A stretch of DNA of 31,646 nucleotides. Origin: a virus. Taxonomy: Duplodnaviria; Caudoviricetes. Below are positions 3,001-28,388 of this stretch, in pieces. The DNA is taken from IMG/VR virus record IMGVR_UViG_3300025698_000029, positions 1 through 31,646 of that record; one strand, 5' to 3'. The position numbers were made by a program, and so were the translations under genes. The notes beneath the pieces are model-generated. The model did not search any database. It was not told the DNA's origin and worked only from the letters and a program-made list of their open reading frames with translations. Each line of letters opens with the position of its first letter. The stretch's first letter is position 1.

Positions 3001-6000
3001 CTGTAGTTGATTTTTTAAATGCTACTACTGGTCATTTATCTTCTTCTTTTAGATCAAATTGTATCCATTCAGCTCAGTCTGACTCTACTATTTCTGCATC
3101 TTTTCTTGTTTTTTGTATATATGGTATTAATTTTCTATCATAGAAATCTACTACTGTTTTTTGTTCATCAGATAGGTTTTCATATTGCTCATCTCGATCT
3201 GATCATTCAGTATCTCATGATGATTGAAATTCCTCATATGCTCATTCTTTGAATACTGTAATATTTCAATCATTATTTGCTACAACCATTCAATATCACA
3301 TATTTTCAAGTGTATCTAATACTCTCATTTTTCTATCATGATCATCTTTCGTATATCTATCTTCTTCTACCCACTCCTCAAATTCATTTTGTAGATTTTC
3401 AGTTACATATTCTGATTCAGTTAAATCTCATAGATCTGTATCAGGATATTGAGCTTTCAAAAACTCTGTAGCATCATAATCGTCAAGATTCTCAAACAAA
3501 TTATCAACTTCTTCCTTTATAAATTCTTCAACAGTTGTCTCAAATGCAAACTCTGAGTCAGAAATTACTCCATATCAAGATCAATCTCAATAAACTGTTG
3601 TAACAATTACATTTCATAAATCTCATTCATGCTCATCTCATACCTCTAATCATTCAGGCATTTGTCATCCTGTTTCTAAGTATCATTGAATTTTTGCTAC
3701 TGTCTTTCAAACTGGTATTTGTACTGATTCTGCTCCTTTGCTTTTAGATTCTCTTATAAATTCTTTTACTAATCTTTCATGTCGTTTACTTTTATAATCT
3801 TCAAATTGTTGCAATTTAGTTATTTCTTCTTCTGATGCATTGTCTATATTATCCTGCTCGTTTTTAATTTCTTTCTTGAAATATATAATCTTTGCTTCTA
3901 TATTAGCTTCAACAAAATCAATTAGTTGGTCAATCGTCTTCTCAACATGAACACTTCCTTTTTGATGTTCTAAAAGATCTGATGCTAATGATCTTAATAT
4001 ATATGTCTCAACTCTTAGTTCCTTTGCAGATTCTATCATTATATTTTCTGATACCTCTCTTTCCTCTAAAGATCTATTGAATAACTGATGTTTCTCATCT
4101 ATAATCTCCTCTGCTATTTCTTTATTGTCTCTAAGCTTTTGTAATGTATCTATTTCAATATCTAATCTTTTTAATTGCTTTGTCGTTTCCTTAACATAAA
4201 ATTTTGAATCATGGAGTTTACTATCTCATTCATATCTTCTTCATTGCATTAGATCTGACTGCAACTCAATTAATCTTATCATATTATCCTCCTCTATTTC
4301 TTCTATCCTTACATGTCAAAAATATGACTCCGTATCATTTCCAAAGTGAGATCATGATGCTTTTGTTTCATATGGAGATTCTAATAGCCATGTTGTCTGA
4401 GCTTTTGTTTCATATGGAGATTCTAATAGCCATGTTGTCTGAGCTTTTGCTTCTACATATCTACCTGATTCTTTATATTCTTTGCTGTTTCCATCTATTA
4501 AATAATTATAGTCTGCAAATTTTCTAGATTCCTTTACGTTTAATGGCAATAATTTATCTTTAAATTTCTTTATAAATTCTATTTTACTAACCTTTTCTCA
4601 TTCCATAGAATCCAATATTTCTTTTGCTATCCTAATTTCAGGTCATTTATATCATCTGTTAAGCATTCACTCTAACATCTGTCTTGATACAATATCCTTT
4701 TTACTTGATGTCTTTAGATCTTCTATAAATTTTGTTGTTAGTTCTTTTTTTGAATTATCTCGTCTTTTAGTTTCTAGATCTTGGTATATTTTATCATATT
4801 CTTTATTAACATTATTATATTTATCAAAAACTTCTATCTGTCTATTTATTATATCTTTTGATCTTTTTGGTAATCTATCAAAGAAATCAAAGTCTGTTAA
4901 ATTTCTTGCAATAACCTCATTGAATTTTCATTCTTCTAATACATCAGTTAAAGTAGATATTCAAGGTCAATATCATTTCTTATCAATATTTAGAGCTTTC
5001 AGATCATCATATACAACAGAAATCTCCTCGTCTTTTACTTTATATTCATCATATAGATCTGTTCTTTTTTGTCTTTTTTCTTGATGAGTCTTCTCTAATT
5101 CTTCTTTATAATTGAATGTTTTTTCATTTGCTTCTCATTCTTTTATTTGGTATTTTTGTTCCTCTACTCTTTTTCCATCTATCTTTTTAATTGCTTCATC
5201 TCTTTTATTTTGTTTGTTTATTTGAGATTGATTTACTCATGCTTGTATAGATCATGGTAATCATATTCAGAAACTTGTTAATCATGCTTCAACAAATAGA
5301 TCCCAATTTTCTTTTAATGTACTCCAATCTCTATCTGATCACATAATTATAGCAATCGCATCTTGTAGATTTGATTGTGCTACTTCTTCTGCTCATTCAA
5401 ATCACATTGTTTCAGCTAATTGTTTTACTGCACTTAATAATGCAGGTCATGATTTTCATGTTATAGCTTTCTTTATAGTTAATGGAGATAGAGCTATTTC
5501 CATACCTTTTCATTCTATGAAAGATGATATTAATCAATACATATTTGCTAATATATCTTTTGTTCATGGATCTAGATCTTTTGTTGCTGGATCAGTATTT
5601 AGATCTTCTAACATTGAATTTGATTCTAATGGAAGAAATGCCATTCCTCATGCTGTAGGACTCTTTGTTAAAAGAGTTACAAGGACTGGTCAAATATTTT
5701 GTCATATAACTGATACAAGCTTATTTCAGACTGTGTTTATATCTCATTCATATAATGCTTTTAGCATAGATTTCTGATCTGTTTTAGATTGAAGATCATC
5801 CAATCGTGGTCTATTATCAAAAAACTTTGTTTCTTGTTCTTTTATTGCATCAACCACTGTATTTGATCATTTATTTATAAGTGATTCTACAGTTTTTTGC
5901 ATACTAGAACTTAATGAAGCATTTAATATTGATCATACAGGATTAATACTAGATCATATATATTTTCATATAATTCATCATTTTAATGAATCGGGTAAAT

Positions 6001-8901: not shown

Positions 8902-10399
8902 AGTTTAAATTGAGTTCATAAAATCTTGGTGTTACTGTTTCGTCTGTTCATCTTGTTAAAAGTATTTGATACTCCATAACATTCCATTCTTTATTGAAGT
9001 CAGGATCTGTTGTTGGAAATAGATCAGCATACATCTTATCAACATCTGTTACAGTTTTTATAGTGTAGAAGTTACCAAATCATGTACTTTCTCTATCACG
9101 TCTTATTTTGATTGTTATGCTTCAAGCAGAAGCACTATCTTTAGACAATAAATATCATATTGTTGATTTTAAATTAGTTTTTCCTTCTCACATAATTCAT
9201 CAATCGTATATTCTTCAAATTAGGAATCCACTAGGTTGATATGTATTACTAATCCATTCTGTATTCGCTCTAAGTTCTCTATAAGCTCATCAAAATTGAT
9301 ATTGGCAACTTACATAAAAATAATCTCCAAATATATAACAATTATATGGATAATAATTTCACAAAAAATCATCTAGAGTCCATTCTAGTAATCAACTCCA
9401 TATTCAATCTACTTTCTTAAATGTTCGTATTCAATCTGCCATAGGACAATATAGAACTCCATCTTTAATATCCATATTATTTCATGGAGATCATATAAAT
9501 GTTGTCATATCTCATCCATCATTTGGAAGTCTAGTTCTTTGCATCTCCATCCTACTATATCATTTTATTTCGTATAATATATATTCTGTTGAATCTGCTG
9601 AATTTCTAAATAATGCATAATCTGATGTTCAATCAGTTGTTACACTTTCTAGATATAATCTATCAAAACTTACAGTTTGTACTAATCATGTATCTTCTAC
9701 ATCGAAAGTACCTTTTGCATAATGAATTTTTGTATCTAAATTATTATTTACTAGATATATTTTTAGATAATTTCCCTCCATAGTTAAACCTTTGATCTCA
9801 GAATCATCTTCAAATTCTCTTATAACTTTCCATCAAATAGGAAGTTCAGGAGTTGCTATTGGTATATATCTCCATAATTTATTATGATCAGCTACTAATA
9901 ACATTGTGTTAGAGTAGTCTAGAACTGCTGTTGCAGATCAAAATGTATGTACAGTACCACTAAATGGATCTGTATATGTTGGAGATGCTATTGGTGCTAT
10001 AGCTCATTGTCATAACGTTGTATCAAATACTGTTATATCATTTCAAAATGCCCATATATCTTCTTGAAATTTTAATACAAAATCATCTGAATCTCATGTA
10101 AGATTTCAGATTAATTGTGTTGTAGTAGGTCGTTGTGAATTATTTTGTAATAAAGCTCTTTGAAATCATCATGTCTCAATTTTTACTAGCTGTGAGTGAT
10201 TATTTCAGACATACATGAATCTTGATGTCGGATTATTTCCTGTGTCATTCGTATTTTCTAATAAAGAGCTTAGACAAATTCAGTTAGAAATATCTCTAAC
10301 ATTTACATTTCTAGCATATTGGAATTGTCCTTTGTGTCATACAAAAGGATCTTTCGACTCTCATCTATTCCATTGTTTTTCTAGATATTTTTTTGCCAT
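8873..10399 (-). CDS. Tail nozzle / DNA-stabilisation protein (P22 gp10 / T7 gp12-like position), 508 aa
   Basis: ATG 10399 (TAATG overlap with the adaptor stop) to TAA 8873. Beta-rich; N-terminal 'G..DP....GQFQYARNVNV'; directly follows the adaptor. Confidence 0.6.
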
Positions 10400-11698: not shown

Positions 11699-12643
11699 TT
11701 AACTAAATGTATATGCTAATGTAGAAGCTGACTCAACTCTAGTCATTGCGTCTTGTTGCAATATAATAGAATTAAATGCTACTTTACAACCCACCTTTTG
11801 TCTTTGTGCCAAAGGATCTGAATCAGATGCAGATCTAGGAGTGATGTATGTTCTCAAAGCTTGCAAATCAGCAACTCCGTATGCTCCTTCTCACATTACA
11901 TAAGTTGGATAAACAGTAACTGTTGATGTGAAAGATTGAACCCATGCAGATTTTACTACTCTTACGTTGTACAACATACCAATTTCTCAGTTCATGATGT
12001 CTTTCGCATTAGCATCAGTGTATTTTTTAAGATCTAAGAAAGCTCATGCTGATGCTCCTGTTTGAAGATCGTAAATAACATTAGGATGCATAACTGCTAC
12101 GTAAGCATCTCCCATTGTAGGAGCTGATTTTGTAGACAAAAATGCGTTTGCTTTTGCTAGAAGGGTTGGAGTCATCAGGTCAGTAGCTCCCAAAGTTGCT
12201 CTAGAAGTTGCTGATCCTGCATAGATAACGTTTGTTCAGTTTGTTTCAAGATTAGCTTGGATAACTGAATCCATTACTCTAGCCATATCTTTTCCTAAAA
12301 CCTTTGCAGATTCCTTAATCATTTGGATTGGAGAAGAATCCTCTAGAATATCTGTGATAGTTGCAAATTCTCCGTATTGGTTTGCAGTTACAGATATAGT
12401 AGTAGTAGTTATATTAGTAGCAGTTGGAGTAACTCCTTCTGTCAATAATACAGATGCAGGTGTAGATATTTTTCTATCTACCTTTGTTCGAGACAAAGTG
12501 TTGTACCCTTTTTTCCATGCTGATTTTTTACCCATAGAGTAAAATCTCAAATTTGGCTCGAAGTTTTCTAATACAGTGCGGTTTAATCGAATTTGTAACA
12601 ATTGTCATGAGGTATTGACGTTTCCTTTAGTTGTCATTCCCAT
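11699..12643 (-). CDS. Major capsid protein (HK97 fold, N4-gp56-like family), 314 aa
   Basis: ATG 12643 to TAA 11699. Motifs LTEGVTP, QYG, YVAVMHP..YDL, NGEIGMLYNVRVV (TGA=Gly) and SDPLAQR..VG.K. Confidence 0.92.
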
Positions 12644-12671: not shown

Positions 12672-13463
12672 TTATCCAAATTGACTTTCTAATTCCGCTT
12701 CCATTTGGTCAGTGTTCATAGTGTCAATGGATGGTTTACTCGTAGTCGTTTTGTTATCTCTACCTCAAACTTTTAACCCTCATTTAAGTTTGTTGATTTG
12801 TTGTTCATCCAATAATCTAGTAGGATCAGTCTCAGCTATTACTAACTTTGACACATTATCCATAGATAGATTTGGATTTTCCTTAGCAAATTTCGTAATG
12901 TCGTCTTTTAGATCGTCTAAGTCAGGATTGGCAGTCATGAAATCTTCTAGTTCAGAAGTTCTTGTCTTATCAATACCCTTTTCCACTTTGTTGATGTCTC
13001 TTTGAACCAGCTTAACATCTTGTTTAGCATCAATTAGTGCTAAGTCCTTGTCAGCATCGTCATCGAAATCATCATCAAGTTCTCACTTCTTAATCTTTTC
13101 TAATCTTTCGTTGGCTTCCGCTAATTCTTCTTTCAAAGCTTTAGCTTCTTCTCTAGATTCATTTCTTTGAGATAGAAGTTTTTTGACTCATGTTTTCTTA
13201 TCCTCTTTTTTCTGTTCTTCATCCTTGTCAGGATTAGGATCGTCTCATTTGTCATCATCTTCTCAATCATCGTCAGATTTATCGTCATCAGACTTATCGT
13301 CAGGATTAGTGTCGTCAGCTTTGTCATCTGCATTGCTGTCGTCTTCATCTTCCTTTGATGAATCGTCATCCTTCTTAGTCTCAGTGTGTAAATCATTCGG
13401 ATCTAGATCGTTTAGATTTTGTTCCATCTCATCTAGAGTTTTGTCGTCTTCGGTGTGTGTCAT
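12672..13463 (-). CDS. Capsid scaffolding protein, 263 aa, with Asp-rich low-complexity N-terminus
   Basis: ATG 13463 (MTHTEDDK) to TAA 12672; joins track fragments 13263-13550 and 12780-12986; acidic and coiled-coil; directly upstream of the capsid gene. Confidence 0.75.
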
Positions 13464-13547
13464 CGTGCATAACATTAAAAGATAAATATTCCTTCTCAGG
13501 ATACGGTTTTGATATATGGTGTCGCAAACCATTATAACAGTACAAAC

Positions 13548-13608
13548 CATTATATTGGATAGTTTATAGGAAACTACACACGTAAACCTACAAACTACCC
13601 ATATAATG
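13548..13608 (-). ncRNA. 22-bp RNA hairpin whose 16-nt loop is antisense to the recurrent gene-leader motif
   Basis: Minus strand CATTATATGGGTAGTTTGTAGG-[TTTACGTGTGTAGTTT]-CCTATAAACTATCCAATATAATG. Two G.U pairs on the minus strand would be A.C mismatches on the plus strand. Confidence 0.55.
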
Positions 13609-13924: not shown

Positions 13925-14510
13925 TGGTTTTAAGTTCAAGATCTAAAACTGTTAGTTGTGCATTATACAGTTTAATTTTTTCTTTATCTTGTTCAGTTTC
14001 AATAAGTTTCAATAGATTCTCCCTTTCAGTAGTTTTCATTTGTTTTAATATCTTTTCTTCTCAAAGGTCTTGATCAACATGAGCTTGTGATGTTGGAATA
14101 TCCTCGTCTGATATATCATTACTATGTATTGATCAATCAGAGTGATCTGCTTCCTCTCATGTGTATTGTCTTTTAAAGTTCCTGTAAGCTACTCAAATAT
14201 CAGAGTGTTGCAGAATTGTATCTAGATGGTTTGGTTTTACTCAATATCTTTCAACAATATCCGTTCATTTCTCTAGCTCCCGTAGTTTTACTCAATAAAA
14301 TTCTATGATTTTGTCCACTACTGCCATCATTGCTGGTTTTAAATTTGCCTGCAATACTCAGAATTCTATAAGCTTTTCTGTTGTAAGATCTATTGGATTC
14401 ATATTCTTTTCTGTTGCAAATTGAACTATAACCTTACCCCATTGTAATTTGTCTTGATGTGTTTTGGCAAAATCAGTGTAACCTGATCATTGCATTCGAT
14501 CGTTTGACAT
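13917..14510 (-). CDS. Hypothetical protein, 197 aa
   Basis: ATG 14510 preceded by the leader TTTATTATTTAAAACTACACACAC; TAA 13917. Confidence 0.75.
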
Positions 14511-14536
14511 GTGTGTGTAGTTTTAAATAATAAATA

Positions 14537-15214
14537 TTACAGATAAGTATCTGCATAGTCTCCACTTTTTACTGTGTTTTCTTTTACTAATTTTAGGTAG
14601 TATTCATTTAATTGATGTATTTTCTTATCCAATTTTGCATCTGCTTTTGTAGCTTTTCCATATACAACTGCCTTAATTAATTTCTCAGATTTAAGATCTG
14701 CTATAGTTATACCATAGAATCTTATAATCTCTTGGATGTAATCAGGTGCTGAATTTATGTCTAATACAATATCGTTTACTTCATAAGAATCAGCTCTCCA
14801 TTTTTTGATAGCTGTCATCTCTGCTTTTGTGATTTCATGTGCTTTAAGTTTATCGTCTTCGTATAGATCTACAGTATTTATTCCGTAGAACTGTTGAATT
14901 TTTCTGATCTTTAGATTTACTGATCCTTCTTCAACTTCTTCTTCTACTGGTGCAACTGGTTCAGCATCAGGTTCTCCTTGATCAATAGTCTCATCAGAAG
15001 GTGCATCAGGTGCATCTACTTCTTCAGTTTTAGTCTCATCTACTGAACTAACTTCTTCTTTAGTTCAATTTTCTGTGTTTTCTGAACTAACTACTCTTGC
15101 TTTCTCAATTTCTTTTTGCATTGCTTCAATATTGTTTTTGATTTGATTTCTTGGTTCTTTTCCTAGAACTTCAAGATATTGTTTTCTTACTTCTTCTAGT
15201 GTCATTTCAGTCAT
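14537..15214 (-). CDS. Hypothetical protein, 225 aa, with an acidic Pro-rich linker
   Basis: ATG 15214 to TAA 14537; includes track ORF 14537-14818; two FYGI..DL repeats. Confidence 0.75.
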
Positions 15215-15225
15215 TTGTGTGTAAA

Positions 15226-15618
15226 TTAATTAGTTAAAAGTTTTTTTAAGTCTGCCAATACTATTCATGATTTTGCTATTTCTTTTTCTAATACAACTCA
15301 GCTTGCCAGTTCTTCTTGAAGTTTATAATACTTAGTTGTGTAGGTTGTTTTGATCAATTCTCATTGTTTTACTAATTCCATTGGATCTTTTACATCAGGG
15401 AATTTTTTGATAGTTTCTTCTTTAAATTCTTCGTTAGAATAAAGATGATTGTAATCATAACCTTCATCTGTAAACCAATCTTCTAGTTTTTTAATAGTTT
15501 CAGGAAGTTGAGTTTGTTTGATCTTATTTACCAAAAATGCTCTTGTAAATTCATCAATAAGTGCTTTAACTCCTTCTTGTCATAATAAGTCTTTTTCTTC
15601 TTGTGTAAGTATTAACAT
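15226..15618 (-). CDS. Hypothetical protein, 130 aa
   Basis: ATG 15618 with AAAACTACAC leader; TAA 15226. Confidence 0.75.
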
Positions 15619-15626
15619 GTGTAGTT

Positions 15627-17519
15627 TTAGTAATTATTTAAAAGTGGTTGTGGTCAATTTTGTGGTTGTTGAGATAGTGATTGTCTTGAAGCATGGTTCT
15701 GCATTGCTTGATTTGGTCATGCTTGATTCATCAATTCTTGTTGTCAGCTCTGTATATATGCCATCTTTCTCATTTCTATTGCTGACTTTGTTGCAGGTGT
15801 AGATAATGCTGATTGATAAATACAAAGATATGTGTAATGATCTTCATTAGGATCTTCTATTATCACAGGCATATTGTTATTCAATAATATAACATGATCT
15901 TTCGCATCCAATTCTTCTGGAGTATACGGACATCATTGCTCGATCTCTCTTAAACTCATTCATTGCATAGCATAAAGTTTACGTTTCATAAACCTTCTTG
16001 CAACTGGTGGAGTAGTAGGATCGTTTAAAGTCAATGTATATATTCTCTCAAAAGTAGCTAATTCTGATTTATTCTTAGACTCTAATTCTCATTTGTTTTG
16101 GATTTGTAGTCTTGGATCGTTTGCTCCTATGATATTCTTACGTGAGAATATGTCTCATGATTGTCATATACCTCTATTAAGCTCTGTATATTTCTCATCT
16201 TTAGCAGAGAAGTAGAATTTATAATAAAGATACCATAGCTCCCAAAAGTCTTTTTCTCATCGTGAGTTTATTTTGTTTCAGAGTATCAAATTAATGTTGG
16301 CATTCATCTGTGCTATCTGAGCTTCACGTGCTGTGTCTGCATTTGGATCTGCTACTCATCTAGTCAAACTACTCAATCCTGTATCATCTTGAACTTGTTG
16401 ATCTAATAATTGTGGGAAGTTATATACATCCTGAGTCATTCCTTGTACTGGCTCATTATACATCATATTTCCTATATTTGCGTTATTTTTAATATCAACA
16501 GGTATATATTGTGGTCATTGTACTCATTGCTCTAATATCTTTTTAGATTTGAAGTATATTGATTTATCTAAGAATACTTTACCTCATAATGCTTGTTTGA
16601 TGGCTTGTACTCTGATAAGATTATACATCAATGTCTTTAATTTCTGTTTATCTTCTGCTATATCGTATAGACAAATTCCTCGTGGATCTCAATCTACAGG
16701 TTCGTAGTAATTCAAAGATACAGGAATCCATTTTAGGACTTCTGTTTTTCCTTTTACCTTTCTAATCAATGGTTCTACAACTCTAACATCCAATAGTTCT
16801 GATGCTCCTCGCATGGTTACTTGTATTGGAAGTCCTTTATATCTTGAATAATGTACATAAATTACTGTATTTGATCATCATAATTCTTTTTCTAATGCTG
16901 TCATATCTCTAGGACTTGCATCTGATTCAATCTTTTCCTGCATATCAGGAGAAAGTCATGCTTCTACTTTTCATGTATTCATCCAAATATCTGAGTTTGC
17001 TTTAACTTCTTGCACTGACATAATTCTTTCAAATCCCATGTATTGGAAGTTCTCAGCTGATGTATGTCCACTTGGATCAGGATACCATGATTCAGGTGCT
17101 ACTACTTTGTAGCTAGGATTCTTATAGTCTTGACGATCATCCCATCCGTCTAATAATCTGATTCATACTCATTTTGTGAACCTATTTTTTTGATTAGTAT
17201 AATCTGCTTTTTCCATAGAAAGATTATCATAATCATACTCACATACTGATTGAAAATTACTAGCTTCAATAAAATGATACAAGTCTCTACTTGTCCATTT
17301 AATACTCAATTTGTCTTGATAATATAATGCTAATAATGAATTTGTTAGACTTCTGATAAGATTTACTTTAACTTTTTCGTCCGCAACGTTAGAAACATTA
17401 TAGAGCCATGTCCTGTCTCTCATGGTTTGTCTCTTTTGTGATGAAGCATTTTTACTGGTTGTGAACTCCGATATAGTTAGCTCTTTAATCTTTTTTAAAT
17501 CTTTTCCTTTGAATTCCAT
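15627..17519 (-). CDS. Portal protein (P22-like), 630 aa
   Basis: ATG 17519 to TAA 15627. Follows TerL; W.PDP, P.G..L.D...DKQ and TAREAQIAQMNAN motifs; Gln-rich C-terminus. Confidence 0.85.
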
Positions 17520-17580: not shown

Positions 17581-19248
17581 CTAATTTAATAAAGTTGAAT
17601 TAACGACAACTCATCAATCGCTTGGATCTTCTAAATGATTTGGTTCATTATCTGCAAAATATTCTGTAGCTGTTCTGTAGTGAGAGTTCTCATCATGTAC
17701 TGGTTTATCCTTCTCTGATGTACTTTCAGATCATTCTTTTATTTGTGGATAATGCGATTGAATTATTGCCTGTTCTCGATCATGACATTCGCTATCATAA
17801 AATACTCTATTCAACATTAATTGAGTTTTATTGATTCTTTCTCTCAATGTAGATTTTCTATTTGTTGTTAAATTTATTCACATTTCTCTCAATGCTTCTC
17901 TAATTGTCTCAGTTTGTACTGTGGTCTTAGTATCAGAATTGTATGGATCTCAGAAATGATCACTAAATCTGATCATTCTCATATACTCCATCAACTCATA
18001 GTCCTCAGTAGTATATGCTCGATTATTTCATTGATATGGTTTTCATATTACTAATCATGCAAAGTCTTTTATATGCCATCATACTCTTTCAAATGTTTTT
18101 ATCACAAATAACATTCATGTTTTATAATCCTTTTGCCATAATATAAAAGCATTTGAATCTCTACCAAAATCCCATGATCAATATGTTTTTCTCTTTATGT
18201 CATATACAAATGTTCCTTTTGATGCCATCCTTGTAAATAGTGGATAAACTGCTCATGATACTGATGTTTCATAACTTATATCTATCTCTTTTGCTAGATC
18301 TAATGTTGTTCTAGTAGCTTTCTGCATATCATACCATGCTTGTGTTTTTAGTGGATGATCACGCCAATGTAATCTGATCTTTTTACATAAATAATGTTTA
18401 TAATCTTTATGGTTGGTCATTACTTTTCAATATACGTTGTTGGTTCATTCAGGAGTTCATCAGAATATTCTGCAATCTGTAACATCCTTTGTCTTTCTAA
18501 ATGCAGTAGAGTCTCTAGTCCATAATGCAAACTCATCTAACCATACACTTTTTCTACGTCATCATGTTCAAAAGTTAGGTCATGAATCTCCTGCTATCTC
18601 TTTGTCTCAATCTTCTTTTGATGATATACTCATATATTTTGATGCCATATCGTCAGGTAGCATCCACTCAGGAAGCCTAGACAATACGTATCTATATCTT
18701 TCAAAGTTACTATCCATATTTCATTGCTCATCTACATAATCCTCTTTATATGATCATGATAATGTACTCCATCAGTGAAATAACCATCATCGTGTATATA
18801 TTCAGATCATCTGCCATGAGAATCATACGTCTCTAGTTTTCTCTACAAATACTTCTTCTCATTTCTCAATACTATTAACTATTGATAATATAAAATCGTT
18901 TTGAAATGGATATGGTATGAACGGTAGATGCGGTTTATCTAGTCTAGGATTATATGTCCATAAGAATAATGCAAAGAACATTAATGGACTCTTTTTACAT
19001 TGTTCTAAATAAAACTCTTGGAATTTTTTATCTCATTCAGCACGTCTCATTATAGATATTCTTTTTTTCAGATTGTTGTGCTGTACTTGTTTTATATATT
19101 CGTCTCTTTGTTCTGTTGAATATTTTACGTTTGATCTCCACTTCTCCAATGTTTCTTCTCTAGATAATCAAGAAAAATCTAACATTTCTTCTATCAAAAA
19201 GTTCTCAGGTACATCCATAACATTATTTAAAGTGTAATCTTGTGTCAT
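17581..19248 (-). CDS. terL: Terminase large subunit, 555 aa
   Basis: ATG 19248 to TAG 17581. Motifs PFIPYPFQ, EKTRDVGFSW (Walker A variant), VWLDEF (Walker B), GTPEG, LHWRDHP, WDFGRD and HDENSH. Confidence 0.92.
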
Positions 19249-19930: not shown

Positions 19931-20152
19931 CTATTTGTTACGGATAAATTTTCCTAATTGATCTTTAACATGAGCATCTAGTTGTTTTCATAAATTATCT
20001 CTTAAAGCTTTCTCAGCTAATTTTAGATCTTTAGTCCATAGCATTCATGATTCTTCGATCTTTTTTCTTAGCTTATTTGAAATAATACTTTGTCATTGAA
20101 TTGTATCTCATTCAATGTAATAAACAACGTCTCCCATTTCTAATTTCTCCAT
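19931..20152 (-). CDS. Hypothetical protein, 73 aa
   Basis: ATG 20152 with the full leader motif; TAG 19931. Confidence 0.7.
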
Positions 20153-20177
20153 GTGTAGTTTTAAATAATAAATAAGT

Positions 20178-20249
20178 TTGCAGAGTGTCGAATCGAACGA
20201 CCGTAACCTCGCTTATGAGACGAGATCGAGAACCAGCACTCTCCCTGCA
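20178..20249 (-). tRNA. tRNA with CAU anticodon (Met/fMet-like or Ile2), atypical D arm
   Basis: Acceptor TGCAGGG/CTCTGCA+A; anticodon arm CTCGT-CTCATAA-GCGAG; T arm GTCG-TTCGATT-CGAC; no encoded CCA. Confidence 0.75.
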
Positions 20250-20376
20250 TTATATGGGAGGAAAATGTTTAATAAACCTCCCAAATCGAATCGTATGACA
20301 TGATTCAGTATCCGTAGCCCCACCTTGCTAGAGATCATGATAGCCCTCTCTTTGTGCTACCAAGCCGTGTGTAGTT

Positions 20377-21090
20377 TTATTTATAGAAGTCGATTTGACC
20401 ATCATAACTGATTCCATTATCCATTGCATGGTATATGGCAATTCTTGCTCAGTTTTTTAGATCTTCCATAACATTCACTATTCATTTTGTACAGTTTAAT
20501 TCTGATAAATCAACAATTCTTTTTGCGGGAAAAGAATTTCTATCAAGAACTCCTGCGATTTTACAATCAGTATATCATACCGTAACATTCCATGTATGCA
20601 TTGGATATGCAGAATATGCAACTCCATCAACATCTAATGTTACTACTAATTTTCATCCAATAGCATCTTGCGGTGCTTTAACAAATGTAGCATTTAGTCA
20701 ATCCATGTAAGAAACTTTTGTAAGATTTCTGAATACATTTTTTGATGTGCTAGATTTTAAACTCCAATTCCATTCAGCATCTTTAGTTGTATAAGTTACT
20801 GCTGGTCTTTCTGATATTGCTACAATATCTTCTATCATATCAATTGCTCCTTCTGCTTCTTCTTCTACTACTATAACTGGTGTTTCTTTCAATGTTGTAA
20901 TTTCTGTTAATAACATGTTTGATCTTTTTACTGCATTTGCTAGATCTGTTTCTAATACTTCATTTTGTTCTACTGCTAGTTCTAACTTAGCTGAATCGTC
21001 TCATGCTCCTCCAAAGATTACTAATCAAATTAGGAATCCTAGTCATAGTATAGCCAATACTGTAAGTCAGTTTTGTAATGCTCTTTTCAT
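20377..21090 (-). CDS. Membrane-anchored/exported protein, 237 aa
   Basis: ATG 21090 to TAA 20377; N-terminal hydrophobic helix LTVLAILGLGFLIGLVIFGG, then a coiled coil and a beta-rich domain. Confidence 0.7.
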
Positions 21091-21121: not shown

Positions 21122-21388
21122 TTAATCACTTCGTGTTTGTGCCTTTACTGCTCGCATTTGTGCAGATTGTGCTTCTGTAATAGCAATACTTGCTAGTCTT
21201 TTAGTCTCTTTTCATGCTCATTCTGAATTTCTTAATGCATCCATTTTATCAATAATTGTAGCATATAGTTGTTTAAGTTTTCATACCTGATCATCTCAAC
21301 TAGGATTAAATCTTAATCAAACTGACTTTTGTCAGAAAGATAATTCAGGCATTTTTTCCACTGATGGTCATAGTCATGTAGAGTTCAT
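21122..21388 (-). CDS. Acb2/Tad1-like helical-hairpin protein (candidate anti-defence nucleotide sponge), 88 aa
   Basis: LSFGQKSVGLRFNPSGDDQVGKLKQLYATIID...KRLASIAITEAQSAQMWAVKAQTW; family assigned from recalled motif similarity only. Confidence 0.6.
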
Positions 21389-21866: not shown

Positions 21867-22676
21867 TTATTTTTTCTTTAACTCAGATAAAATCTTTTTT
21901 GATTCTACATCCCCAAATACTTTTTTAATATAATCAGCATCAGGTTTATGTTCTCCAGAGATTATACTACCTCTGAACTGCTTTTTGAACTTTGCTATAT
22001 AATCCTCTGCTTCTCAATAACATGTAGGTTTTGTCATAGCAAACTCAGGTATAATACCCATAAGTTCATTGATGATACCTTTCTGATCTTTTGAAATAGC
22101 AAATACCTCTAATTTGTCAATATTTCCTTTGGCAATTTGATCTAATTTGTCTTTAGCTGATTGCAATAACTCAGTAGTTACTGGTACTACATCATAGATC
22201 TTCTCAGGCAAATCAACCTTACCTTGCATGAAGTTATCATTACAATGATTTGATAGATCAATAGGATTCTTCAAAGATTCTCAACCAAATACTGCATGTC
22301 CGTAATTTCAAACTTTCTTGTAATCTAGATATTGGTTAGGTATATCATAAGTAAATTTACCAATACCTCGCTTTACTCCTGCTCTTTTAAATGCTCATGA
22401 TGATGTAGTCTTCTCTTTTCATTCCTTTGTGTCTCCCATATCAGATCTTCGTAATCGTTCTCCATCTACTCTAATTCAGATACTACATACAGTTTTTCCT
22501 GCAACTGTAGTAATTTTGTCTTGCCAGTTGTTTATACCAATAAGATTGTTTAATTGATCCATAGTATCTCTAGCATCAAAGTATGCTACACAGATACATT
22601 TTGTATCGTTTTTGTAAGTTGTTTGTACCATTCGTTTTACCTCAAATGGCTTAAATAAATCAGTTAATCATGTCAT
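21867..22676 (-). CDS. Rad52/Rad22-family single-strand annealing protein (Sak-like), 269 aa
   Basis: PFEVKW.VQ, AYFDARD..D.L...G..NWQD, DGEWLWRSD.G and AFKRAGVKWGIGKF.YD, reading CGA as Trp. Confidence 0.9.
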
Positions 22677-22713
22677 ACGTGTGATTTTTAAATATAAAAG
22701 ATAGTTCTTCTTT

Positions 22714-23226: not shown

Positions 23227-23603
23227 GTTGTTTTTTCGCTAAAAGGTTTAAAACATCTTAAAAGATCGTATTCAGTATATGTAAATACTTCTTCTTCTAA
23301 TTCTTCCCAAACCATCATCATTATATATCTATTGTGTATATCTATTGCAACAACCTGATATAAGTTATCATCTCCATGATCATCCCTATGCTCGAAATTC
23401 TTTCACAAAAATTTCTGTTTGTGTTCAATACTTGTTTCTGTTACGTCTATTCGATCAGAGGAATTTTCGATTGTTGTTGCTGGTATTAGCAGAGATTCAG
23501 CTGGATTAGAGTAATCCCCAAAATATACACGATAATGTGTTTTAGAGAATTCATTTGCTTTCCAGTTATTTGTTTTATGCATGTATTTTTTAATAATTTT
23601 CAT
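23217..23603 (-). CDS. Hypothetical protein, 128 aa
   Basis: Leader motif plus ATG 23603; extends track ORF 23403-23603 through TGA to TAG 23217; IPATTIENSSDWI. Confidence 0.7.
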
Positions 23604-23627
23604 GTGTAGTTATTTAATATAATAAAA

Positions 23628-24422: not shown

Positions 24423-24484
24423 TTCGTGTGGTTTTAAATAATAAATATATACTCTATTTGGTTTGGTTCATACTGTTATAGGTT

Positions 24485-24919: not shown

Positions 24920-25001
24920 CCTCTAATATCTTATATTTTATATACATATATATATCTCTAATATTCCATCGTTTTCATGTATATTTTATATTTAATTTCA
25001 T
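24903..25001 (-). CDS. Very small ORF, 32 aa
   Basis: AAAAACTACAC leader directly before ATG 25001; TAA 24903; supported mainly by the leader. Confidence 0.45.
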
Positions 25002-25028
25002 GTGTAGTTTTTAGACATAATAAAATAC

Positions 25029-25163: not shown

Positions 25164-25181
25164 TTTGTGTGTAGTTTTTAT

Positions 25182-25478: not shown

Positions 25479-25506
25479 AATGTGTGTAGTTATTTAATAT
25501 AAAATG

Positions 25507-26147: not shown

Positions 26148-26156
26148 TGTGTGTAT

Positions 26157-27093: not shown

Positions 27094-27132
27094 AAAGAAA
27101 AACCTACCTTCCCTTAGGAAGATAGGTCTTCA
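27094..27132 (-). terminator. Rho-independent terminator
   Basis: AGACCTATCTTCC-taag-GGAAGGTAGGTTT followed by TTCTTT. Confidence 0.8.
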
Positions 27133-28109: not shown

Positions 28110-28135
28110 TTCGTGTGGTTTTTAGAAAATTAAAA

Positions 28136-28363
28136 TTATTTAATTTTGTGGCTTGCCTTAAATCTTCCTATAATAACAATTATTGCTGATGCAGTTGTTA
28201 CCATACTCATAATTGCTTGCATAATCTGTGCTTGGAATTCTGCTGAAATAGATAGATCAGGATTTCCTGTTACTGTTGCAACAAAACCCATTATACTAAC
28301 CAATCCTGCTACAACTCCTGCCCATACTGTTTTACTTTTCCATCGGTTTTTATTAGTTTTCAT
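28136..28363 (-). CDS. Holin-like protein, 75 aa, two TM helices
   Basis: KNWWKSKTVWAGVVAGLVS...IVIIGRFKA (K.W..SKT.W and GR.KA pattern); adjacent to the peptidase. Confidence 0.75.
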   Translation of the reverse strand: MKTNKNRWKSKTVWAGVVAGLVSIMGFVATVTGNPDLSISAEFQAQIMQAIMSMVTTASAIIVIIGRFKASHKIK

Positions 28364-28388
28364 GTGTAATTATATCAAAGATTAAAAA

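Follow-up and report, generated by a model that had tools for sequence, protein, structure and literature searches.

A hairpin before the scaffold gene of code-25 tailed phages, with a loop that co-varies with head-module gene starts and is a likely antisense RNA guide

The phage genome and the hairpin locus

The window (the whole stretch of 31,646 nucleotides that was analysed) comes from a tailed phage with genetic code 25, in which TGA encodes Gly, and its genes lie on the minus strand. With translation table 11 the window has no ORF longer than 151 aa, and with table 25 the minus strand is tiled with genes. Opposite the TGA codons of the capsid protein, most aligned residues are Gly (72 of the 93 listed for the window), which indicates code 25. 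From this code, the host is probably an ultra-small bacterium of the Absconditabacteria or Gracilibacteria; phages of such code-25 hosts are among those described (PMC10746230). Recognisable in the window are the capsid, the portal, both terminase subunits, an SU10-type adaptor, an Erf-like annealing protein, a replication protein, a peptidase, a holin-like gene and an HTH gene. A near-identical complete genome of 39,984 bp with terminal repeats (G001) shows the same one-strand layout. No integrase, repressor or antirepressor match was obtained for the 39 window proteins and 8 further G001 proteins. To our knowledge, gene control in the phages of code-25 CPR bacteria is almost unexplored.

Three side observations concern the setting. 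An 88-aa protein encoded at 21122-21388 on the minus strand contains the Acb2/Tad1 hairpin domain (PF24729, above the cut-off), and may act in this CPR phage as a sponge for nucleotides of anti-phage signalling. At 4359-4442, an exact tandem duplication of 42 nt lies within a giant gene of at least 2,165 aa. A code-25-looking phage contig (L162; contig C8 of G011) was found inside a genome titled Peribacteria, and is possibly mis-binned.

The features of the locus are listed in Table 1. The hairpin under study lies between gene D and the scaffold leader, and is identical in L001 and G001. On the minus strand, which is the coding strand, it has a fold z-score of −6.9, none of 200 shuffles being as good, and its energy is −26.9 kcal/mol versus −17.1 kcal/mol on the other strand. 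The initial annotation had placed the hairpin on the transcribed strand because of its G-U pairs and had noted that the loop can partly pair with itself. Both points are borne out: the stem includes G-U pairs and folds better on the coding strand, and a weak internal stem of 4 bp in the loop costs 2.6 kcal/mol to open.

Table 1. Positions of the genes, the RNA elements and the complements of the loop in the window
Feature	Position	Strand	Remark
Major capsid protein	11699..12643	-	phrog_1357, E 6.7e-50
Scaffold-like acidic protein	12672..13463	-	start placed by alignment of the relatives' leaders; role suggested by position
Scaffold-leader element	13490..13532	-	predicted H-type pseudoknot and small hairpin; conserved, separate from the guide hairpin
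Guide hairpin	13548..13608	-	26 bp with 3 G-U; between gene D and the scaffold leader
Loop (guide)	13571..13586	-	UUUACGUGUGUAGUUU, letters as first quoted
Gene D, 97 aa	13631..13924	-	directly before the hairpin; predicted target in the L004 and L016 lineages, not in the window
Gene C, 197 aa	13917..14510	-	all-helical, conserved EFYG motif, no family or fold match
Core target 2, leader of gene C	14513..14523	-	predicted duplex of 11 bp
Weak match, leader of gene B	15217..15223	-	gene B is no target in relatives
Gene A, 130 aa	15226..15618	-	predicted helical coiled-coil hairpin, no family
Core target 1, start of gene A (after the portal)	15615..15627	-	predicted 13-bp duplex through AUG, one G-U; 10 nt exact
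Portal	15627..17519	-	PF23899
Large terminase	17581..19248	-	predicted target in the rumen-type clade, not in the window phage
Target, start of a 73-aa gene before TerS	20152..20161	-	10 nt exact
Best complement, 12 nt	20366..20377	-	no AUG after; start of a non-coding stretch with tRNA-Met
Weaker target, start of the Erf/Rad52-like annealing protein gene	22676..22683	-	8 nt exact
Target, start of a 128-aa early-region gene	23603..23611	-	9 nt exact
Weak variant before a 71-aa gene	24426..24434	-	AAACCACAC; like variants at 28113-28121 (peptidase) and 26149-26155
Target, start of a 32-aa ORF	25001..25010	-	10 nt exact
Target, leader of a 44-aa ORF	25167..25177	-	11 nt exact
Target, leader of a 98-aa gene	25482..25491	-	10 nt exact
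Target, start of the holin-like gene	28363..28368	-	6 nt exact, −12.6 kcal/mol with G-U

No Rfam family was matched over the hairpin at E <= 1 in a scan of the whole window, a local Rfam scan of the hairpin gave sub-threshold miRNA-like hairpin matches only, and the six relatives gave no gathering-level match. A full-text literature search, thin in subscription papers, returned no description of such an element. The hairpin is not among the 6 terminator-like sites of the window and is not flanked by one; an intrinsic terminator, that is, a G+C stem followed by a U run, was rejected on this ground. Among the promoter-like sites listed by a consensus scan, which rank above 39 weaker ones, none lies on the minus strand at the hairpin. 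Since no listed promoter-like site and no terminator-like site delimits it, the hairpin is probably carried on the late message.

A second structure lies beside the hairpin, in the scaffold leader. This element is found at the same place in L002, L005, L007, L009, L011, L015, L016, L017, L024 and L127, includes a TATTTA word, and is present with or without the guide hairpin. In its predicted pseudoknot 90.5% of the cells are paired, and 6 of the 10 pairs are changed on both sides. It had no Rfam match. Scaffold autoregulation is known from analogous cases, and the element is possibly an operator for it.

Genes A and C, located between the portal and the scaffold genes, belong to no Pfam or PHROG family. 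The structure model of gene A (pLDDT 91) resembles generic coiled coils only (best Z 9.2), and that of gene C (pLDDT 72) gave no match at E <= 0.001 in the PDB or viral libraries. Gene B (14537-15214, minus strand) has two FYG repeats that look, by eye, like the motif EFYG in gene C; the two genes may share a paralogous domain.

Complements of the loop at gene starts

The 9-nt core AAACTACAC occurs in 7 exact copies, 6 on the minus strand and 1 on the plus strand, and the plus-strand copy is the loop. Under an energy threshold of <= −12 kcal/mol the loop pairs with 8 of the 39 starts in the window, and at <= −10 kcal/mol with 11 of 39; the corresponding rates in background windows are 1.0% and 2.6%. 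The mean for shuffled loops was 0.3 starts, and a value of 8 was reached once in 500 shuffles. With G-U pairs allowed, the starts of the AAACUACAC-AUG class pair through the start codon (13 bp at 15618), and a single G of the loop reads both ACACAC and ACAUG through wobble.

Much of what the initial annotation had reported on these matches was reproduced. The loop is indeed the sole copy in the opposite orientation, the leaders of scaffold and capsid are free of the motif (the longest complements there are 4-5 nt), and the match lengths are 11 nt at the genes starting at 14510 and 25163, 10 nt each at 15618, 20152, 25001 and 25478, and 8 nt at 22676. Several starts are matched as proposed, but the dozen comes to 8 or 11 under the two thresholds. 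The 12-nt match at 20366-20377 exists, but it opens a non-coding stretch instead of preceding an ATG. In that stretch, the tRNA-Met(CAT) gene occupies 20178-20249 on the minus strand, and 20250-20377 ahead of it forms several small hairpins and holds the loop complement, with no start codon.

The coding strand of G001 has 8 matches of >= 9 nt: 7 at starts, including those of two small ORFs, 1 at the site with no AUG, and 0 within genes. The starts pairing at <= −12 kcal/mol are concentrated in the arc from holin to gene D (8/27) versus 0/22 in the arc from scaffold to the gene preceding holin, which includes the tail genes (p 0.006). Some leaders are duplicated as blocks: 23 nt are identical at 14514 and 20152, and a 44-nt family is present at 23584, 24982 and 28344. 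Leader duplication probably helped the tag spread in the window phage.

Tags sit between an upstream TTTA word and the first codons. The TTTA word is present in 29/33, 34/40 and 37/41 leaders of three phage sets and in 85/123 leaders of code-25 hosts, and Shine-Dalgarno (SD)-like words in 0/33, 2/40 and 1/41 phage leaders and 5/123 host leaders. The code-25 genomes L239-L246, L250 and L252 have SD-less leaders, and within the scope of L209-L238 many 16S tails of the class are without CCUCC.

Loops and start motifs in related phages

Code-25 relatives were collected from scans for capsid, portal and terminase, and the gap before scaffold was folded in 67 loci, duplicates included. In six lineages a hairpin of 16-43 bp lies in the same place, between a gene of ~100 aa and the scaffold leader. 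The stems are dissimilar and the loops differ; by eye, a YUNR U-turn motif is not common to all of them. Each loop corresponds to a start motif of its own phage. The loop UUUACGUGUGUAGUUU of the window lineage is accompanied by AAACUACAC(AC)-AUG, the loop AUGGGUUUGU of the L004 lineage by ACAAACCC-AU, and the loop GGUGGUCGGUCUCC of the rumen-type clade by AGACCGAY. L002, a sister in the rumen-type clade, has the loop UUCGGUCU and the motif AGACCGAA. The remaining combinations are AAUAGGGUC with UGACCC(U) in the L011 lineage, GACUUCCAUGUC with GAC-AUG-G in the L016 lineage, and GGGACAU with AUGUCCC in the L127 lineage. According to the alignments, orthologues of A and C are among the tagged genes in all six lineages.

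The correspondence was quantified with predicted duplex energies. At the start of gene A, the phage's own loop pairs at −15.2 kcal/mol versus −7.0 kcal/mol for foreign loops, and at the start of gene C at −14.6 versus −6.8 kcal/mol; for each gene 1 of 720 permutations of the six lineages reached this value, a figure uncorrected for the fact that genes A and C and the representative loci were chosen after matches seen by eye. L002, the sister of L007, is excluded from this six-way permutation. Preference for the own loop is absent at the control genes, namely gene B (153/720), scaffold (149/720) and capsid (438/720). A seven-way test gave 2/5040 for gene A and 1/5040 for gene C, even with a wrong stem for L016; the L016 hairpin was chosen by hand, as the automatic picker had taken another stem. 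For gene A, the own loop is the best entry of its row in 4 of 7 cases: L002 and L007 cross-react, and the L016 loop is slightly better on L007.

A blind scan for shared complements of the starts of A and C, made on the coding strand over 80-439 sites, placed the loop first in 5/7 sequences and second in 2/7. Over both strands its rank was between 1 and 7, and what outranked it was mostly the reverse complement of another tag-like copy. For each of the 7 hairpins the coding strand gives the better fold, and the number of G-U pairs is 2-5. In the rumen-type stem 92% of cells are paired versus 40-52% in slid controls, and 3 pairs are changed on both sides, relatedness being uncorrected. The target base opposite a loop G is C in 15 of 23 sites and T in 8, never a purine (0/23), and at gene C the difference between L002 and L007 is a one-base compensatory change. 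In L002 the tag of gene A lies within the first codons (4036-4050; ATG AAG ACC GAC), as if the start had shifted upstream and the target had been kept.

Co-variation of loop and leader motif in related phages, which the initial annotation had named as one of its checks, is thus found in six lineages, each own loop matching its own gene starts. Pairing of the loop with start codons, by a real and previously uncatalogued phage RNA element, is very probable on this comparative evidence.

The breadth of the target set varies. The conserved core of predicted targets is genes A and C, with the large terminase added in the rumen-type clade. In a complete genome of this clade (G003), only these three starts bear the motif, and three other ORF starts equal them by energy. 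L016-type phages and L004 add gene D, and the three best-scoring of the 65 ORFs in G002 are genes A, C and D. L004 has seven exact copies of its 10-nt tag in 15.9 kb, including one at an exonuclease gene. In L193, whose own hairpin would lie beyond the contig end, the tag is on the replication initiator. One-to-many targeting, as first proposed, is supported in the window phage and the L004 phage, and in these two the wide predicted regulon is real; it is not the conserved state. The description of the targets as mostly early or accessory does not fit, as the conserved ones are the two orthologues between portal and scaffold and the terminase of the rumen-type clade.

Of 19 phages that share one poorly resolved region of the capsid tree, 7 are without the hairpin, and genes A and C are confirmed in three of these; the hairpin is hence dispensable. 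More distant phages often carry a TTGACA-type promoter-like site at the position of the hairpin (labelled by eye). A blind scan for a relocated guide in the hairpin-less G004, L024 and L005 gave no strongly folded complement among the top four hits of each. Two leader-pattern scans and the portal and terminase scans yielded the known types and L193, and no new loop type. The exact loop has 25 matches in viral contigs, 2 of which are from the phage type of the window.

Proposed function, alternatives and comparison with known systems

The co-evolved hairpin is likely an antisense RNA guide that blocks ribosome loading on two head-module genes once the scaffold and capsid region is transcribed, a reading to which we assign a probability of about 0.6; translational repression in trans is its most likely function, at the same rough probability. 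Read directly from the sequences are the fold and its preference for the coding strand, and likewise a complementarity that co-varies by lineage and is absent at the scaffold and capsid starts. The wording of the initial annotation that the RNA is late, abundant and acts in trans is suggested by the position of the hairpin, and cis pairing on one long mRNA is possible for the nearest targets.

The hairpin would be transcribed within a long late message and act either from the intact mRNA or after excision by RNase III. Among the sequencing runs listed for the rumen-type relative L007, none is recorded as RNA, and four that were compared consist of contigs, probably of DNA, a result that is neutral as to expression. 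Its loop would nucleate a duplex of 7-13 bp without Hfq. In SD-less leaders this duplex would cover the stretch from the TTTA element to the first codons and block initiation, and less A and C protein (in one clade also less terminase) would be made relative to scaffold and capsid. In the window phage the tag has spread to at least six more genes, probably in part through leader duplication; the same RNA would also damp early-region genes and holin, which requires action in trans. In five code-25 genomes, perhaps incomplete and of unproven link to the host, Hfq was found in 0/5 and RNase III in 5/5, which fits the two proposed steps of a seed displayed by the loop and a possible release from the stem.

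The pairing falls between −14 and +12 relative to the start with no fixed spacing to the AUG, is often over the AUG, and tolerates G-U. In L016, L127 and L002 gene A it covers the AUG or falls inside the coding start. The variable position, the coverage of the AUG and the tolerance of G-U favour a block of initiation through RNA-RNA pairing over recruitment of the ribosome or a DNA site. Such a duplex should hinder loading of the 30S subunit, and a recruiting adaptor is not expected over the AUG, so repression is the best guess, and recruitment, which the initial annotation had left as an option, is disfavoured.

An unlikely alternative is long-range fold-back in cis, in which the loop pairs only with upstream starts on its own polycistronic mRNA (1-2.5 kb to C and A) as a timer or stoichiometry control, the distant copies being by-products of leader duplication. 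Three observations agree with fold-back: every core target is upstream of the hairpin and on its strand, the hairpin is not bounded by a listed promoter-like site or by a terminator-like site, and leaders are duplicated as blocks (14514/20152; 23584/24982/28344). Against it, a loop holds one target at once, and the window has 8 strong targets up to 14.8 kb away, one of them beyond the terminator-like site at 27098-27131; moreover, a second lineage (L420) has independently put its own, different tag on early-region genes, and the tag of L193 is on the replication initiator.

Less probable again is an activator or dual switch, in which pairing opens target leaders or helps ribosome loading and so replaces SD pairing. 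It would suit hosts and phages without SD leaders, in a class where many 16S tails are degenerate. In L084, one copy of the target forms the loop of a stem that spans the portal leader, and a second copy lies in a strand predicted to pair with the capsid start (4560-4609 and 9955-10015 for the portal and capsid-start copies), where guide binding could activate. L188 and L193 likewise have a target displayed in the loop of a hairpin ahead of TerS; pairing at that loop might open the leader. However, the leaders of the core targets are open as they stand (cost of opening 0.4-2.1 kcal/mol), the spacing between the duplex and the AUG it often covers varies, and the proteins most needed, scaffold and capsid, are untagged in five of six lineages.

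The hairpin before TerS is conserved (L188 1845-1900, L193 3400-3490, L408 near 733) and displays the sense target GACCCUA in its loop, beside a CCAGCUGG palindrome. It may serve the guide as a receiver or as a decoy.

A short motif found in the leaders of many genes of a phage is often a promoter or a repressor site, and the window phage has an HTH gene. The motif could accordingly act as a site on the DNA or as an RNA operator that a protein binds, and the hairpin would then hold one more such site, inverted, and no RNA guide. This is improbable: there are six unrelated motifs, each mirrored by its own loop and some located inside coding sequence, their variation is compatible with wobble, and the stems favour the coding strand. 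That the tag is a general initiation signal of the host and the loop a mimic of the 16S tail, to which the variability of CPR 16S tails (PMC9297842) would lend itself, is the least credible reading and was rejected as largely refuted, as the 12-nt tag occurs 0-3 times per genome in 251 class genomes, the level of controls, ACTACAC is in 0/123 leaders of code-25 candidate hosts, and none of the 29 tails listed resembles the loop.

Beyond repression of A and C, a broader and more speculative picture can be drawn, in which the leader of the capsid message carries a re-addressable guide. Each lineage would write a private address of 7-12 nt at chosen start codons and carry the matching loop. One Hfq-free RNA could then switch a gene set at the transition from early to late, repressing open leaders, opening folded ones and telling self from non-self among co-infecting phages. 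If true, control of this kind could be general among phages in hosts without SD pairing. Co-variation of a loop with targets at distant, non-overlapping sites is rare and strong sequence-only evidence for an RNA-RNA circuit. It shows a possible translation control without SD pairing or Hfq, in which address and guide are free to drift. The six natural and largely orthogonal guide-target pairs might serve as compact riboregulators. Two uncharacterised head-module proteins, A and C, are also flagged as proteins whose dosage apparently matters.

Among known systems, the C4 and CI RNAs determine specificity and heteroimmunity through loop and target, and this specificity differs among related phages. 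C4 (P1/P7, Rfam RF01695) and P4 CI are described as antisense RNAs of phages (PMC8198154, PMC5499578, PMC2864571). As in these, the RNA proposed here would be cut from or embedded in a phage transcript and pair through short exposed segments with its own mRNA, and the short complementary segments found here co-vary between related phages. Unlike them, the element is a single long hairpin without Rfam match, and its predicted targets are starts in the head module, the packaging genes and the early genes, where C4 and CI act on an antirepressor or an immunity operon; it also belongs to a phage with no integrase or repressor match.

GcvB is a chromosomal, Hfq-dependent sRNA with a conserved seed. 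It acts on C/A-rich (ACA) translation enhancers (PMC3879156). The likeness lies in one G/U-rich seed that pairs with many initiation regions, and the tags of the window and L004 are C/A-rich; the seed described here, in contrast, differs from lineage to lineage, only two of the six tags are ACA repeats, and none of the five code-25 genomes gave Hfq. Like a trans-acting sRNA, the loop is a short seed complementary to several initiation regions encoded elsewhere (8/39 starts). CpxQ, SroC and DapZ represent trans-acting sRNAs derived from 3'-UTRs; here too the hairpin stands right behind a stop codon and is probably made from mRNA, but it has no terminator U-tract, lies between cistrons before the scaffold leader, and bears its seed in the loop of a 16-43-bp stem.

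The phage antisense RNAs sar (P22), OOP and aQ (lambda) and STnc6030 (BTP1), the last of which mediates RNA-based superinfection exclusion (PMC12197685), serve post-transcriptional control of phage genes, as is proposed here. They are cis-encoded on the opposite strand with one target each, unlike the present hairpin, which lies on the strand of its targets, about 0.9-15 kb away from 2 to 8 or more of them, with exact complements of only 6-12 nt.

The Min Jou long-distance pairing of MS2 and the kissing loops of RNAI/RNAII and CopA/CopT have one target each, and the plasmid pairs overlap. Pairing initiated by a loop without a chaperone, or long-range masking of a start, is common to these and to the element proposed here, and changes in the loop define specificity groups. 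In the plasmid pairs overlap makes co-variation automatic, whereas the loop and the several distant targets described here must mutate separately.
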